Positions 1 to 21,425 of a stretch of 21,425 nucleotides of DNA are shown in pieces. Both the position numbers and the translations under genes were made by a program. Below the pieces are notes generated by a model, which saw only the letters and a program-made list of their open reading frames with translations, did not search any database and was not told the DNA's origin. This stretch comes from a virus (Duplodnaviria; Heunggongvirae; Uroviricota; Caudoviricetes), in the IMG/VR virus record IMGVR_UViG_2802429219_000008. One strand, 5' to 3'. Numbering within the stretch: the stretch's first letter is position 1; each line of letters opens with the position of its first letter.

Positions 1-93
1 GACTGGTTGCGCGAAGTGATCGTGAAGCTTAATGACTGGCCGTCAAACCGTGTGCATGAACTGCTGCCCTGGAACTGCTCAACTGTAAAATAA
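1..93 (+). CDS. 3' end of an unidentified gene entering from upstream of the window (partial)
   Basis: Frame 1 is open from base 1 to TAA at 91-93 (...DWLREVIVKLNDWPSNRVHELLPWNCSTVK*). Convergent with the 97..327 gene. No family recognised. Absent from the ORF track because there is no start in the window. Confidence 0.2.
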   Translation, partial: DWLREVIVKLNDWPSNRVHELLPWNCSTVK

Positions 94-96
94 TCC

Positions 97-327
97 TTAC
101 GCTACGTACTTCTCGGGGCGCTTACGTTGCATGCAGGAATATTCACCGGAAAGAGGCCAGTCAGCGAATATCTGGTGAAATCGCCTCACCAGAGAAAAAA
201 TGGCGGTTTTGCTGACACCAGTCTGCGCAGAAATGCGCGGGTACGACAGTGACTCGTCAAATCTCAGCTGTAGCACACGCAGGATCAATTCCGGATTATC
301 TGCCAGTACCGCCTTTCGTGCATTCAT
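97..327 (-). CDS. small helix-turn-helix protein (76 aa), function unknown; possibly a truncated regulator
   Basis: ORF track 97..327(-). AAGGA Shine-Dalgarno 8 nt upstream of ATG (aaaaggacatttaagATG). Residues ~14-50 (PELILRVLQL...ISAQTGVSKTAIFSLVRRF) look like a TetR-type N-terminal HTH, but the protein stops at 76 aa. Confidence 0.4.
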   Translation of the reverse strand: MNARKAVLADNPELILRVLQLRFDESLSYPRISAQTGVSKTAIFSLVRRFHQIFADWPLSGEYSCMQRKRPEKYVA

Positions 328-395
328 CTTAAATGTCCTTTTACTGCGAAAATGGACATTAGTATCGGAAACAGGAAAGGGAGGCGAAAGACGGT

Positions 396-785
396 TTAAA
401 TGATGCGCTTACGATTTTTTTCACCGATTATGCTCAGGATATTTTTGATGACGGCACGGTATGTGTTGAGTGATGTTTTGGCGACTTCAGTTTCTTTCAG
501 TGCCAGAAATTTTTCAGCCAGTTCTTTTATGGTTAAATCTTGTCGGGCCTCACCAAATTTTTCCAGATTGCGTGAGGAGGGAAACTGTTTTGCATAGTCG
601 AAAACACCAGTTTTTATTGCGTAACAAACAGAGGAGCGTAGTTCACCTGCAACGCGCCTGTTTTTTGCTGTGTCAGGAACCCCCAGATTTTCCCTGACTC
701 TTACGCCTTTATAAACAAACCAGATACGTAATTTCCCTCCATGGTTTTCCACGCCTGTCGGATATTTCATTTCAACTTCTCTCAT
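396..785 (-). pseudogene. tyrosine integrase, N-terminal fragment only (129 codons; arm-binding region, no catalytic domain)
   Basis: ORF track 396..785(-): MKYPTGVENHGGKLRIWFVYKGVRVRENLG... is a typical N-terminus of lambdoid/P4-type integrases. TAA at 396-398; the downstream frames contain no R..HxxR..Y catalytic domain. Sits directly downstream of xis as expected for int. Confidence 0.6.
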
Positions 786-804
786 TAGTTAGTGTGGCTT
801 TTAG

Positions 805-1056
805 TCAAGTAAGATGACGTCTTGGTCTCGCTGATGCCTGGCGCTCAATCCAGCGATCAATTTCTTCCAGGTTGTAAAAGCATGGACTGTTATCCCATGG
901 CATACCGTCATGAGCGACATGCTTATATTCCCTTCCTTCCATAAACGATTTTTCCCGGGCCTTTTTTAACGTACCTTTTTTTATTCCTTTCAGCGCAATT
1001 AACTGCTCTTCGGATACCCATTTGCCGGGAGAGACAATCATGATTACTTCGCTCAT
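805..1056 (-). CDS. excisionase-like protein (DUF1233-type Xis)
   Basis: ORF track 805..1056(-), 83 aa. Small protein immediately upstream of int on the same strand. The REYKHVAHDGMPWDNSPCFYNLEEIDRWIE segment resembles the putative-excisionase family. Start could instead be the ATG at 1039-1041. Confidence 0.55.
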   Translation of the reverse strand: MSEVIMIVSPGKWVSEEQLIALKGIKKGTLKKAREKSFMEGREYKHVAHDGMPWDNSPCFYNLEEIDRWIERQASARPRRHLT

Positions 1057-1128
1057 CGATTTCTTTATCTCTTACATCAGACGAGCGCCGGTTGCAGAAT
1101 ACCAGTCACAACCGGCGACAGTTGAACA

Positions 1129-19736: not shown

Positions 19737-20094
19737 TCACCATAACTGCTAACCATTCTGACCATTTCACAAGTGACAGAGTCAATATCGTATTCTGTCA
19801 CTGTCAGGCTAATACAGTACTGCAATTCAACTACAGCAATGCCTCGTATTTAGGTGAATTTACAATATCGTCCAGTTCGGATGCCGGCTGCATTTCTGAA
19901 GATAAGGCATTTCGGTTCTCGTATTTTCCCCTCATGCTCGTCAGTCCTGCGCGTAGTAAGAAACAGGACACTCACACTAATTTGTGTGGGCATGCTGTGA
20001 TGTCCTTCTGAATTATCCCCATGCCATTATGTAAAGCTCTGTTACAGATGCTCGTCACGGTTGTCAGGCTGTCGGGTCCTCCCAGTGGGGGGCC

Positions 20095-20160
20095 CTGCCA
20101 CGGGGCGGGAGCGTCGCGGAAAAAGACTAGTTTTTGCATTTCCATGGCGGCGGCAGCATG
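20095..20160. other. cos site (lambda-like cosN/cosB region)
   Basis: ACGGGGCGGGAGCGTCGCGGAAAAAGACTAGTTTTTGCATTTCC closely parallels the lambda left end GGGCGGCGACCTCGCGGGTTTTCGCTATTTATGAAAATTTTCC as I recall it. Lies ~195 bp upstream of the small-terminase start, as cos does relative to Nu1 in lambda. Confidence 0.5.
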
Positions 20161-20298
20161 TTTGGTAATTTATTGATAATTAAAAGTTATTTCTCTTTTC
20201 ACCTGTACAATATTTTTTTCTCCCTGTCATTAGACCAGTTTGCAATTAATTGAAATATATAAATAAACCTGATTTTCACCTGCCAGATGGAGTTGCTT

Positions 20299-20826
20299 AT
20301 GTCAAATGTGAGCGGGATCGGTGATGCTTATTACTGGAGTGTTTTTAAAATCGCCGAGGCCTTTGGGCTTCACCGGGACACAGTAAAAAAACGGCTCCTC
20401 GCGGCCAACACTCCTGTGGCTGCGACTGTCAGGGGGAACCCCGTTTACGCCCTGCAGCATGTCGGGCCCGCCCTGTTTAGTGTGAAGCATGAGGCAGCAG
20501 ACTCTGTTCATGATCCATCCCGTATGGAGCCGAAAGAGAGAAAGGACTGGTACCAGTCTGAAAATGAAAGGATCAAGCTGGAAAAGGAGCAGCGAAAACT
20601 CATCCCAGTTGATGAAGTAGTCATCGTCTATTCGTCCATGAGAAAGGCTGTCGTCCAGGTTCTGGAGACAATTCCGGATGTTCTTGAACGCGATTGCGCC
20701 CTGACTCCTCAGGCCGTCGGCGTTGTACAGCAGGCCATTGATGACCTGCGATACACTCTTCAGGAAAAATCCTACGAGGCTTGTGCTGCTGAATTAATTC
20801 CTGATGAGGAAGGAGAGAGTCTCTAG
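20299..20826 (+). CDS. terminase small subunit (Nu1/NohA-like, N-terminal HTH)
   Basis: Frame of ORF 20287..20826. ATG at 20299 with GGAG 6 nt upstream. N-terminal HTH (YYWSVFKIAEAFGLHRDTVKKRL). Directly followed by the large-terminase ORF. Confidence 0.7.
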   Translation: MSNVSGIGDAYYWSVFKIAEAFGLHRDTVKKRLLAANTPVAATVRGNPVYALQHVGPALFSVKHEAADSVHDPSRMEPKERKDWYQSENERIKLEKEQRKLIPVDEVVIVYSSMRKAVVQVLETIPDVLERDCALTPQAVGVVQQAIDDLRYTLQEKSYEACAAELIPDEEGESL

Positions 20827-20834
20827 GAGGAATA

Positions 20835-21326
20835 ATGGGTTTTTCATCAGCCCGAAATTTGGGAAGGGACATATCGGCAGGATTTTCCCCACCACGTCGC
20901 ATGCCGATTTCGGAGGCTGTTAAAAAATTCATGCGTGTTCCCAAGGGGGCTGGTAACTCGGTGCCATGGGATCCTGAACTGACACCCTACATCATTGAGC
21001 CCATGAACTGCCTGGCATCGCGTGAATACGATGCGGTGATTTTTGTTGGTCCTGCGCGAACAGGGAAGACCATTGGTCTGATCGATGGATGGATTGTCTA
21101 TACCATCGTTTGCGATCCTTCGGACATGCTCGTTGTGCAGATGACCGAAGATAAGGCCCGCGAGCATTCTAAAAAGCGCCTCGACAGAACGTTCAGAAGC
21201 AGTGCGGCGGTAAAGAAAAGAATGAGTCCACGTCGTAACGACAATAATGTCCATGATAAGACGTTCAGGGATGGCTCGTTCCTTAAAATTGGTTGGCCTG
21301 TCAGCGCCAGTGATATAAGACGGTAA
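20835..21326 (+). pseudogene. terminase large subunit (lambda gpA-like), N-terminal 163 codons only
   Basis: ORF track 20835..21326(+). AGGAGG Shine-Dalgarno. Segments PARTGKTIGL, MLVVQMTEDKAREHSKKRLDRTFR and NVHDKTFRDGSFLKIGWPVSAS align with lambda gpA residues ~75-160. Stop at 21324-21326, far short of the ~640 aa expected. Confidence 0.65.
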
Positions 21327-21329
21327 TTC

Positions 21330-21425
21330 ACCATTTGGATTGTCCGCTCCACCCAACATGTTGTTTCCTTAAGGTTCTCACACCAGAAAGGACATCAACA
21401 TGCTGAGCAGAGAGGACTTTTACAT
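21330..21425 (+). mobile_element. probable IS21-family insertion sequence, left end and start of istA (partial, runs off window)
   Basis: ATG at 21400 with AAAGGA Shine-Dalgarno begins MLSREDFY..., the N-terminus I associate with IS21-family IstA. The terminase frame breaks ~80-90 nt upstream. Only 26 nt of the ORF are in the window. Confidence 0.4.

Follow-up and report, generated by a model that had tools for sequence, protein, structure and literature searches.

The question raised by this locus is whether a defective Qin-type prophage of Escherichia coli with intact cargo genes is a domesticated remnant in which genes useful to the host were kept, as an initial annotation proposed, or a phage genome that was inactivated only recently. 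The window, i.e. the whole stretch of DNA analysed (21,425 bp), is one entire draft contig (PTSA01000044.1) with both ends in IS repeats, and is 98.5-99.6% identical to E. coli chromosomes. We consider it probable (about 0.8) that the window is the int-to-terminase half of a Qin/mEp460/HannyBb-type E. coli lambdoid prophage, covering its early, immunity, replication, Q, lysis and moron regions, and that two lineage-specific IS insertions, of the IS66 family in int and of the IS21 family in terL, made it defective for excision and packaging. Qin-type prophages, the DicA/DicC/Rem switch, DicB/DicF, the csp paralogues and hokD are already well described.

Interruption of the integrase and terminase genes

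The two ends of the window carry the following features.

1..125, + strand: 3' end of an IS66-family element, with the transposase C-terminus (stop at 91-93) and a terminal repeat ending ...GCGCTTAC at 125; inserted into the next IS
126..412, - strand: end of a second IS66-like element with a truncated tnpA accessory gene; the terminal GTAAGCGCATC... is read from 412 (GTAAGCG...) and abuts the integrase stub
413..770, - strand: integrase stub, codons 1-119 of 426, arm-binding domain alone
20287..20826, + strand: small terminase-position gene (terS, DUF1441), intact
20835..21298, + strand: large terminase stub (terL), about 154 of 699 codons, half of the gpA ATPase domain
21299..21425, + strand: left end of an IS21-family element (TGTCAG...), istA ATG at 21400, running to the contig end

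Integration had been called broken on account of an integrase fragment, and the terminase had been described as interrupted before a probable IS; both statements were borne out at the gene level. In tblastn, Int aligns over residues 1-119 of 426 alone (770->414) and the catalytic domain is missing, while the DNA match of terL ends at 21298, near codon 154 of 699. A gene for excision and a gene for packaging have thus both been lost, as expected of a defective prophage. The IS66-like element at 126-412 is 99.7% identical to annotated IS66 tnpA copies and the right end of the other IS66-family copy interrupts it at 125/126.

Compared with the intact genes, the stubs show no mismatches in 358 nt of int and 464 nt of terL (100% nucleotide identity). 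Among 5,426 complete E. coli genomes, none contains either the int/IS66 or the terL/IS21 junction; the former has no exact match in the GTDB species-representative genomes, and an exact look-up of the int' ORF returned no record. The terL'-IS21 fusion ORF (163 aa, formed by read-through) occurs exactly in two assemblies, GCA_002965785.1 and the Logan assembly of SRR3988017. Since the stubs are unmutated and the junctions are absent from the 5,426 genomes, we infer that the IS hits are recent. Each event may have been a simple insertion, or an IS-mediated deletion that also took head and tail genes, which would represent more advanced decay. Because the window is a whole draft contig, its IS ends double as assembly breaks and the remainder of the prophage lies outside it; as it stops inside both IS copies, absence of the head and tail genes cannot be deduced from it. 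The lambda cos core motif was not found in the window, nor did a repeat search of it give att-like repeats, its output being limited to the cspB/cspI paralogy and to short direct matches in two copies (28 and 31 nt), a kind often due to chance.

Gene order relative to K-12 Qin

Whole-region alignment with Qin of K-12 MG1655 (NC_000913.3 1632277-1652745, matched on the reverse strand) gave six blocks with order and orientation preserved, 413-649 (100%), 2834-4514 (98.0%), 5032-6440 (97.6%), 9295-12178 (92.7%), 13731-16116 (95.9%) and 16774-19371 (91.1%). From int to gnsB, the window and K-12 Qin run collinearly at 91-100% identity, and the K-12-like gene order given in the initial annotation stands. 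The shared order is intQ', (ydfE), ydfD, dicB, dicF, ydfB, ydfA, dicA, dicC, ydfX, hokD, rem, ydfU, ydfT(Q), ynfS, cspF, cspB, ynfU, essQ, ydfR, rrrQ, rzpQ/rzoQ, cspI, ynfQRN, gnsB.

The early region of K-12 Qin is more decayed than that of the window, which has in addition xis, a full exonuclease, a full ydaT-like gene, an O-like initiator, DUF977 and a complete hok/sok leader. The IS hits differ as well: K-12 ydfE is the first ~255 codons of the 823-aa exonuclease, cut by IS2, whereas the window carries IS66 and IS21. K-12 Qin has relBE-ydfV-flxA-ydfW in place of the window's replication genes, DUF4406 gene and 112-aa ORF, has ydfC and ydfO, lacks an equivalent of 12179-13730, and carries nohA, an unrelated packaging gene, ahead of its tail-fibre genes. 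Measured against the active phage type, the missing replication block and the missing stretch after Q are losses of K-12 Qin.

Immunity region and dicBF operon

3694..3885, - strand: ydfD (lysis protein), intact
3882..4070, - strand: dicB (cell-division inhibitor), 100% to K-12 DicB
4245..4297, - strand: DicF small RNA (Rfam hit at 4245-4296, 72.5 bits), a 53-mer with one base different from K-12
4557..5132, - strand: 191-aa ORF (phrog_35040), putatively coding, starting with the first 34 residues of YdfB
5134..5289, - strand: ydfA, first gene of the dicBF (PL-like) operon
5290..5455, - strand: dicBp promoter/operator region, 157/166 identical to K-12
5456..5863, - strand: dicA (CI-like repressor, 135 aa)
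5864-5946: dicA-dicC operator region (83 nt), 80/83 identical to K-12
5947..6177, + strand: dicC (Cro-like)
9681..9932, + strand: rem, intact, 83 aa, 96.4% to K-12 Rem

The dicA/dicC locus and a dicBF operon encoding DicF RNA and DicB are present, and rem lies between hokD and ydfU, as in Qin-type prophages. The switch, DicB and DicF had been listed as intact, and they are: DicA, DicC and DicB are 98.5%, 100% and 100% identical to K-12 at the amino acid level, so that both prophages share one immunity type, and DicF matches at 52/53 nt. The operator and promoter regions of the locus are 95-96% identical to K-12. Where the window has the 191-aa ORF, K-12 Qin has ydfB and ydfC. Rem has been described as a DicA antirepressor (PMC10448788). 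In a permissive Rfam scan of the window, the extra hits were all sub-threshold, namely STnc100, overlapping the dicF-dicB spacer, and one weak eukaryotic/archaeal-type snoRNA model.

Replication block and hok/sok locus

6161..6682, + strand: YdaT-family gene in the cII position (173 aa), full length; K-12 ydfX is its truncated N-terminus
6663..7628, + strand: replication initiation O-like protein (321 aa), absent from K-12 Qin
7669..8085, + strand: DUF977 protein, intact
8088..8387, + strand: DUF4406 (nucleoside 2-deoxyribosyltransferase-like) gene, variable slot
8701..9039, + strand: 112-aa Cys-rich, AT-rich ORF (phrog_12178), variable slot
9140..9464, + strand: complete hok/sok/mok locus, with leader/sok region at 9140-9314 (Rfam), mokD frame at 9252-9464 and hokD at 9309-9464

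The different block that had been noticed upstream of hokD is real relative to K-12 and spans 6441-9294. A two-gene system made up of the DUF4406 gene and the 112-aa ORF was considered and rejected, as each is found separately in other genomes. A PDB sequence search with the 112-aa ORF was uninformative, and PADLOC gave no defence-family hit for the variable-slot ORFs or for other ORFs of no assigned function, its sole hit being a weak DEDDh match to the exonuclease. HokD, likewise reported as intact, is 100% identical to K-12 (tblastn; PF01848, E=1.2e-23) and sits within a type I toxin-antitoxin locus in which the Hok ORF, the overlapping mok frame and the leader/sok antisense region are all present, the leader covering the full model RF01794 at 117 bits. 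No Rfam sok hit was obtained at K-12 hokD.

Late region

9999..11328, + strand: 92-aa ORF and ydfU (DUF968/HNH-like), intact
11342..12094, + strand: Q antiterminator (ydfT), intact
12095..14068, + strand: AT-rich, mostly non-coding post-Q stretch, with a tR'-like terminator (12202-12220), a short ren-like remnant and a 61-aa ORF (13258-13440, - strand)
14066..14422, - strand: ynfS and cspF
14562..14938, + strand: cspB, with cspA-type thermoregulator 5'UTR (Rfam)
15302..15472, - strand: ynfU
15691-15906, + strand: class II holin essQ (PF04971)
15911-16462, + strand: long ydfR variant (DUF1327), in the lysis cassette
16784-17317, + strand: SAR-type endolysin rrrQ (PF00959 lysozyme, hydrophobic N-terminus)
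17314-17811, + strand: i-spanin rzpQ (DUF2514 Rz)
17507-17761, + strand: o-spanin lipoprotein rzoQ, embedded in rzpQ, LTSC lipobox
18017..19235, + strand: cspI (100% to K-12, cspA-type 5'UTR, Rfam), ynfQ, ynfR, ynfN and gnsB
19530..19736, + strand: 68-aa conserved phage ORF (phrog_657)

A terminator-like hairpin lies ~110 nt downstream of the Q stop, and no tRNA genes were found after Q. The initial annotation had spoken of extra inserts in this place; the segment 12179-13730 is indeed extra relative to K-12 Qin, but as it is present in phage HannyBb it was lost from K-12 and not gained here. The lysis cassette (15691..17811, + strand) is of the lambdoid kind and as full as had been stated, with holin, endolysin, i-spanin and embedded o-spanin intact, and cspF, cspB, cspI and GnsB, also named as intact, are full length by tblastn. 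The ydfO/DUF1398 moron, found in K-12 and in a second compared prophage, is absent from the window at the 19530-19736 region.

The 823-aa exonuclease

805..1056, - strand: excisionase xis (DUF1233), intact
1129..3600, - strand: 823-aa exonuclease, intact, with a RecE-like centre (aa 262-627) and a DEDDh Rv2179c-like 3'-5' exonuclease domain (aa 642-813)

This gene had been described as a probably intact RecE-like exonuclease. It is intact; the likeness to RecE is confined to the middle of the protein, and the catalytic domain is DEDDh. Residues 262-627 align with aa 278-592 of RecE (exonuclease VIII) of Rac at 40% identity overall, near-identically around a CxxC...CxxC stretch, and both genes lie in a PL-like operon beside xis and int. 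In Rac RecE, run as a control, PF12684 was detected at aa 615-850 together with the N-terminal domain PF06630, whereas the window's exonuclease has neither PF06630 nor a PD-(D/E)XK domain (no PDDEXK hit) and carries instead, at aa 642-813, the Pfam Rv2179c-like DEDD domain (E=2.5e-67). The NCBIfam equivalog PRK09709 scored 281 bits against a cut-off of 1269, with only profile positions 271-600 of 877 matched, and the PDB hits, 8kel and 8ken, were two sequence entries of one 227-aa exodeoxyribonuclease other than RecE. No RecT-type annealase gene is adjacent, unlike in Rac: xis follows after 72 nt (1056 to 1129) and ydfD and dicB lie upstream. With no PD-(D/E)XK domain, PRK09709 below its cut-off and no RecT beside it, identity with RecE was rejected. 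A PDB sequence search with the N-terminal 260 aa was uninformative, and a literature search on a RecE/DEDD chimera found nothing specific.

A proposal that we regard as unlikely is that, in the sole gene of the recombination slot, a RecE scaffold had its PD-(D/E)XK 5'-3' nuclease replaced by a DEDDh 3'-5' exonuclease and that, having no annealase partner, the protein may act other than in RecET-style recombination; it might, for example, degrade nucleic acids of the host or of competitors, or nucleotide signals, in anti-defence or exclusion.

Related phages and prophages

Escherichia phage HannyBb (PP925841.1, 45.3 kb) matches 84% of the window at a mean identity of 98.5%, in the blocks 413-5360 (99.7%), 6049-8086 (95.2%), 9115-16116 (98.7%), 16774-20834 (98.35%) and 20835-21298 (100%). 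It shares dicB, dicF, hokD, rem, Q, the post-Q AT-rich stretch, cspF/cspB, the lysis genes, cspI, gnsB, terS and terL. Its record contains terminase, head, tail, int and xis genes; int and terL are intact and the head and tail module is full. HannyBb differs in its repressor/cro pair (window 5361-6048 unmatched), in a short ydfR, and in the variable slot, which holds a methyltransferase fragment and another ORF in place of the DUF4406 gene and 112-aa ORF. The temperate phage mEp460_ev081 (LR597641.1) covers 58% of the window at 95%; it is reported to be functional and to carry dicB, dicF, dicAC and rem (PMC10448788), and such cargo is therefore normal equipment of the phage type.

E. coli FHI_NMBU_03 and STEC299 each carry, beside rspB, a full-length prophage with the same int-to-terL layout and an intact terL. 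Together with a remnant at the rspB/ydfJ locus of EF7-18-51, these prophages are 94-99.7% identical to the window, and int is intact in all three. The EF7-18-51 copy matches window 413-11328 (10.9 kb, including dicA/dicC, DUF4406 and the 112-aa ORF) at 99.57%, and IS3 and IS1 have degraded its late region. QueH is found in the slot that separates DUF977 from hokD, and in other strains an anti-phage dCTP deaminase or a RelA/SpoT-domain gene.

Recent inactivation or selective retention

Contigs of short-read assemblies typically terminate in IS copies, and as the entire contig ends in repeats on either side, the IS junctions could be chimeric joins or minority variants in a prophage that is really uninterrupted and functional. 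The junctions, however, are internal to the contig, which extends 412 nt and 127 nt into IS sequence, and both coincide exactly with canonical IS termini (GTAAGCG... for IS66, TGTCAG... for IS21); the 163-aa terL'-IS21 ORF, moreover, is reproduced exactly by the separate Logan assembly. An assembly artefact is thus very improbable.

Accepting the breaks as genuine, the window might still be a long-resident Qin remnant in which selection preserved dicBF, the csp paralogues, gnsB and hokD while phage functions decayed. K-12 Qin is a remnant of that kind, and its DicB and DicF are reported to have effects at the level of the host (PMC6832061, PMC5069750, PMC3105296). Of the 5,426 complete E. coli genomes, 3,779 have the dicF-dicB-ydfD block, 2,098 the cspI-gnsB block and 730 the window's terminase module, which at the family level fits cargo outlasting packaging genes, although the counts are confounded by mosaic sharing among several prophage types. 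The EF7-18-51 copy, with its degraded late region, points the same way. In the window, however, differential decay is not seen. All of the ~35 genes between the IS junctions are full length, with no class excepted; gene-by-gene tblastn found neither stops nor frameshifts in xis, the 823-aa exonuclease, ydfD, dicB, ydfA, dicA, dicC, hokD, rem, ydfU, Q/ydfT, cspF, cspB, ynfU, essQ, rrrQ, rzpQ, rzoQ, cspI, ynfQ/R/N, gnsB and terS. The genes for phage functions (xis, exonuclease, O-like initiator, DUF977, Q, terS and all of the lysis cassette) show no more damage than the cargo, and the two classes have like pN/pS values against K-12 (0.17 for cargo, 0.16 for phage-function genes). Domestication would not predict that a potentially lethal replication initiator, holin, endolysin and spanins, DicB, YdfD and a complete hok/sok were all kept. 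Long residence after inactivation is contradicted by the unsubstituted int and terL stubs and by junctions confined to the window's lineage, and the same cargo stands in the same order in HannyBb (95-100% over shared blocks), with dicB, dicF, dicAC and rem also in mEp460_ev081. Selective retention is therefore unlikely, and the claim of a domesticated prophage that kept host-useful cargo is not upheld; intact genes between the junctions, unmutated stubs and equal pN/pS indicate recent inactivation.

Proposed operation and significance

The genes present, their order and intactness, and the IS junctions were observed directly; the proposed working of the locus is modelled on K-12 Qin and lambda. 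The repressor DicA, which is short, non-cleavable and CI-like, would silence dicBp and with it the leftward PL-like operon ydfA-dicF-dicB-ydfD-exo-xis-int', as well as the rightward dicC-ydaT-O operon, and Rem would counteract it as antirepressor. Q would antiterminate late transcription directly downstream of its own gene, which would then proceed through the csp morons to the holin-endolysin-spanin genes, cspI-gnsB and the terminase genes. On derepression, in-situ replication and possibly cell killing or lysis would be expected, with neither excision nor packaging. The csp genes, gnsB, hokD/sok, dicB and dicF would be morons in the standard genome of the phage type, and their presence here would reflect the short time since inactivation and not selective retention.

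The significance is small beyond correct annotation, functional phages bearing the same cargo being already in the literature. A contig ending in IS copies is silent on the sequence beyond them. The long gene labelled "exonuclease VIII" in these prophages is, by its catalytic domain, not RecE, and undamaged cargo beside a broken integrase and terminase does not speak for domestication where two recent IS hits account for the damage.

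Identity and gene content of the element

The window is one entire contig, PTSA01000044.1 (21,425 bp), of the draft assembly GCA_002965785.1, as established by an exact look-up of the ORF that reads through from the truncated terL into an IS; the same ORF was also found in the Logan assembly of run SRR3988017. At positions 413-11328 the window matches the E. coli EF7-18-51 chromosome with 99.57% identity, and at positions 13731-21298 it is 98.5% identical to E. coli KK19-02; from these identities the host is almost certainly E. coli. The element is a defective prophage of Qin type, a kind already known.

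Whole-region BLASTN against Qin, the cryptic prophage of E. coli K-12 MG1655, gave six blocks that share order and orientation with the window, in agreement with the initial annotation of the gene order. The deposited Escherichia phage HannyBb (PP925841.1; 45.3 kb), whose record has terminase, portal, head, tail, invertase, int and xis, was also compared.

Segments of the window matching K-12 Qin or HannyBb, with identity
413-649, K-12 Qin, 100%
2834-4514, K-12 Qin, 98.0%
5032-6440, K-12 Qin, 97.6%
9295-12178, K-12 Qin, 92.7%
13731-16116, K-12 Qin, 95.9%
16774-19371, K-12 Qin, 91.1%
413-5360, HannyBb, 99.7%
6049-8086, HannyBb, 95.2%
9115-16116, HannyBb, 98.7%
16774-20834, HannyBb, 98.35%
20835-21298, HannyBb, 100%

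Gene integrity was assessed by tblastn using annotated proteins of K-12 and of FHI_NMBU_03, an E. coli with a full-length prophage beside rspB. Full-length and free of stops were the early, immunity and replication genes xis, the 823-aa exonuclease gene, ydfD, dicB, ydfA, dicA, dicC, a 173-aa ydaT-like gene, the O-like initiator gene and DUF977, together with hokD, rem, ydfU, Q, ynfS, cspF, cspB, ynfU, essQ, rrrQ, rzpQ, rzoQ, cspI, ynfQ/R/N, gnsB and terS. Assignments from Pfam, PHROGs and NCBIfam were consistent with these calls, and the lysis cassette is complete: it encodes a class II holin, an endolysin whose N-terminus is hydrophobic, Rz and an embedded Rz1 bearing an LTSC lipobox. The tblastn, Rfam and domain searches thus agree that DicA/DicC, DicB, DicF, HokD, the three cold-shock paralogues, GnsB and the lysis cassette are intact, as originally proposed.

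RNA features located with Rfam
4245-4296, minus strand, DicF RNA, 52/53 identical to K-12
9140-9314, hok leader and sok region
5' of cspB and 5' of cspI, cspA-type thermoregulator leaders

Two intervals differ from K-12 in their ORFs. An ORF of 191 aa at 4557-5132 (minus strand), which starts as YdfB does for 34 residues, occupies the place of K-12 ydfB (42 aa) and ydfC. It has a match in phrog_35040 and is annotated in HannyBb, but PGAP leaves it out of E. coli genomes, where ydfB is marked as 'missing C-terminus'. The K/R-rich tail of this ORF could be spurious. The gap between holin and endolysin (15911-16773) holds a long 183-aa variant of DUF1327/YdfR, a protein of 103 aa in K-12 and HannyBb, and an 86-aa reverse ORF (16410-16670). 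KK19-02 and strain 755 share the long form, which PGAP marks there as incomplete.

Disruption of int and terL

Integration and packaging had been described as broken, and at the gene level this holds, int being cut at an IS66-like end and terL at an IS21-family end. Only residues 1-119 of the 426 of Int align by tblastn, at 770 to 414, and the stub is adjoined by the IS66-like element, the terminal repeat of which begins at position 412 in minus-strand reading (GTAAGCGCATC...) and the tnpA accessory gene of which is directed leftwards. Positions 1-412 comprise nested IS66-family copies, the right end of one (1-125, ...GCGCTTAC; transposase stop at 91-93) lying inside the tnpA accessory gene of the other (126-412), which is cut at 125/126. 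The DNA match of terL to intact genes runs to 21298, at about codon 154 of 699; the IS21-family end (TGTCAG...) follows from 21299, with the istA start codon at 21400. The contig ends lie inside these IS repeats, and any remainders of int and terL and any head and tail genes would lie beyond them, outside the window. A target-site duplication flanking an IS66 insertion would measure about 8 bp.

Both breaks look recent from the sequence, since the stubs of int (358 nt) and terL (464 nt) show no differences from the intact genes of HannyBb, FHI_NMBU_03 and STEC299 (another E. coli with a full-length prophage beside rspB), and since both junctions are absent from the 5,426 complete E. coli genomes.

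K-12 Qin as a derived state

Compared with the active phage type, K-12 Qin is a derived state. Its ydfX corresponds to codons 1-93 of the 173-aa ydaT-like gene and its ydfE, cut by IS2, to codons 1 to ~255 of the exonuclease gene, and the O-like gene, DUF977 and xis are present in the window and lacking in K-12. The block upstream of hokD, earlier read as peculiar to this copy, does differ from K-12, but with ydfX truncated and the O-like gene and DUF977 missing it is K-12 that is derived. The slot between DUF977 and hokD (window 8087-9114) varies among strains.

Content of the DUF977-hokD slot
K-12: relBE-ydfV-flxA
FHI_NMBU_03 and STEC299: QueH
KK19-02: anti-phage dCTP deaminase
Strain 755: RelA/SpoT-domain gene
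Window, 8088-8387: DUF4406 gene
Window, 8701-9039: AT-rich 112-aa Cys-rich ORF, phrog_12178

The two genes of the window occur as a pair in three complete genomes (99.8%); as each is also found without the other, they are independent modules. The Cys-rich ORF, which had no match in Pfam, NCBIfam, PADLOC or PDB, is possibly an uncharacterised moron or defence gene.

The hok/sok/mok locus (9140-9464, plus strand) is complete in the window, with a full Rfam sok model (117 bits), whereas Rfam gave no sok match around K-12 hokD (16500-18000 of the Qin locus). Since, in addition, homology between the two begins just 14 nt 5' of the hokD ATG, the relBE block has taken the place of the control region 5' of hokD in K-12.

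Similarly, the extra inserts reported after Q correspond to a real difference of 1.55 kb (12179-13730), but one that reflects a deletion in K-12, the stretch being present at 99.9% in HannyBb and the full-length prophages. Rich in AT and with almost no coding content, it has a tR'-like terminator ~110 nt past Q and a short ren-like remnant. The whole Q-cspF interval (12095-14068; ~2 kb, 34-40% GC) is nearly ORF-free and 99.9% conserved in HannyBb; the remnant within it spans ~110 nt and is similar to the lambda ren region, and the late promoter would lie in this interval too.

The 823-aa exonuclease

The exonuclease (1129-3600, minus strand) is intact, is 99.9% identical to WP_021520755.1, and was initially called RecE-like. 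This is true of its middle only: aa 262-627 resemble aa 278-592 of Rac RecE, with 40% identity overall and near-identity around the CxxC...CxxC stretch. The C-terminus is instead an Rv2179c-like DEDDh 3'-5' exonuclease domain (Pfam E=2.5e-67) with visible DLE, NFD and H-x4-D motifs, D645 and E647 being candidate catalytic residues, and the N-terminal 260 aa have no Pfam or PDB match. Two domains detected in the Rac RecE control, PF06630 N-terminally and PDDEXK at aa 615-850, were not found here. As the NCBIfam RecE equivalog scored 281 bits, below its cut-off of 1269, and no recT-like gene adjoins the exonuclease gene in the window, membership of the RecE family, as defined by the catalytic domain, was rejected; by sequence the protein is a chimera with a RecE-like centre and a DEDDh domain where RecE has its PD-(D/E)XK domain. 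In some deposited phage records the corresponding gene is annotated as 'exonuclease VIII'.

Selective retention and predicted behaviour

The initial annotation regarded the element as domesticated, its cargo (dicB, dicF, hokD, the csp paralogues and gnsB) having been kept for the host. No evidence was found that the element was domesticated or that selection retained its cargo. Such cargo belongs to the ordinary gene set of these phages: the HannyBb matches include dicB, dicF, hokD, rem, cspF, cspB, cspI and gnsB. The functional temperate phage mEp460_ev081, which matches 58% of the window with 95% identity, carries dicB, dicF, dicAC and rem (Ragunathan and Vanderpool, PMC10448788). Decay is not differential: all genes between the IS junctions are intact by tblastn, including those for replication, Q, lysis and terS, and pN/pS against K-12 (Nei-Gojobori count) hardly separates the cargo genes (0.17) from the phage-function genes (0.16). 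The recent look of the breaks also speaks against domestication, as does the retention of every potentially lethal function, namely the initiator, DicB, YdfD, an entire hok/sok locus and the lysis cassette. What points the other way, at the family level only, is block prevalence in complete genomes (at least 80% coverage), with dicF-dicB-ydfD in 3,779, cspI-gnsB in 2,098, the O-like gene in 1,761 and the terminase module in 730, a ranking confounded because a genome carries several prophages that share modules in mosaic fashion (the dicB block lies in a median of 2 places).

By homology with K-12 Qin (PMC10448788), DicA would act as repressor of both dicBp and the rightward promoter, with operator regions identical to K-12 at 157/166 and 80/83 positions. 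In K-12, mitomycin C fails to induce dicBp, and DicB blocks phages dependent on ManYZ. DicA is short and apparently lacks a RecA-cleavage site, and its antagonist would be Rem. Upon derepression, the O-like initiator would drive replication in situ and Q would read through into the lysis genes, while without Int and TerL neither excision nor packaging would be expected.

A remnant of the same prophage type lies at the rspB/ydfJ locus of E. coli EF7-18-51 (NZ_CP063487.1, 4062142-4080015) in another state of decay. In its left half, int is intact and identity to the window is 99.57%; its late region has been disrupted by IS3 and IS1 and is without Q, the csp genes and most of the lysis genes. 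This remnant is an example of how decay at a single locus can take independent paths.
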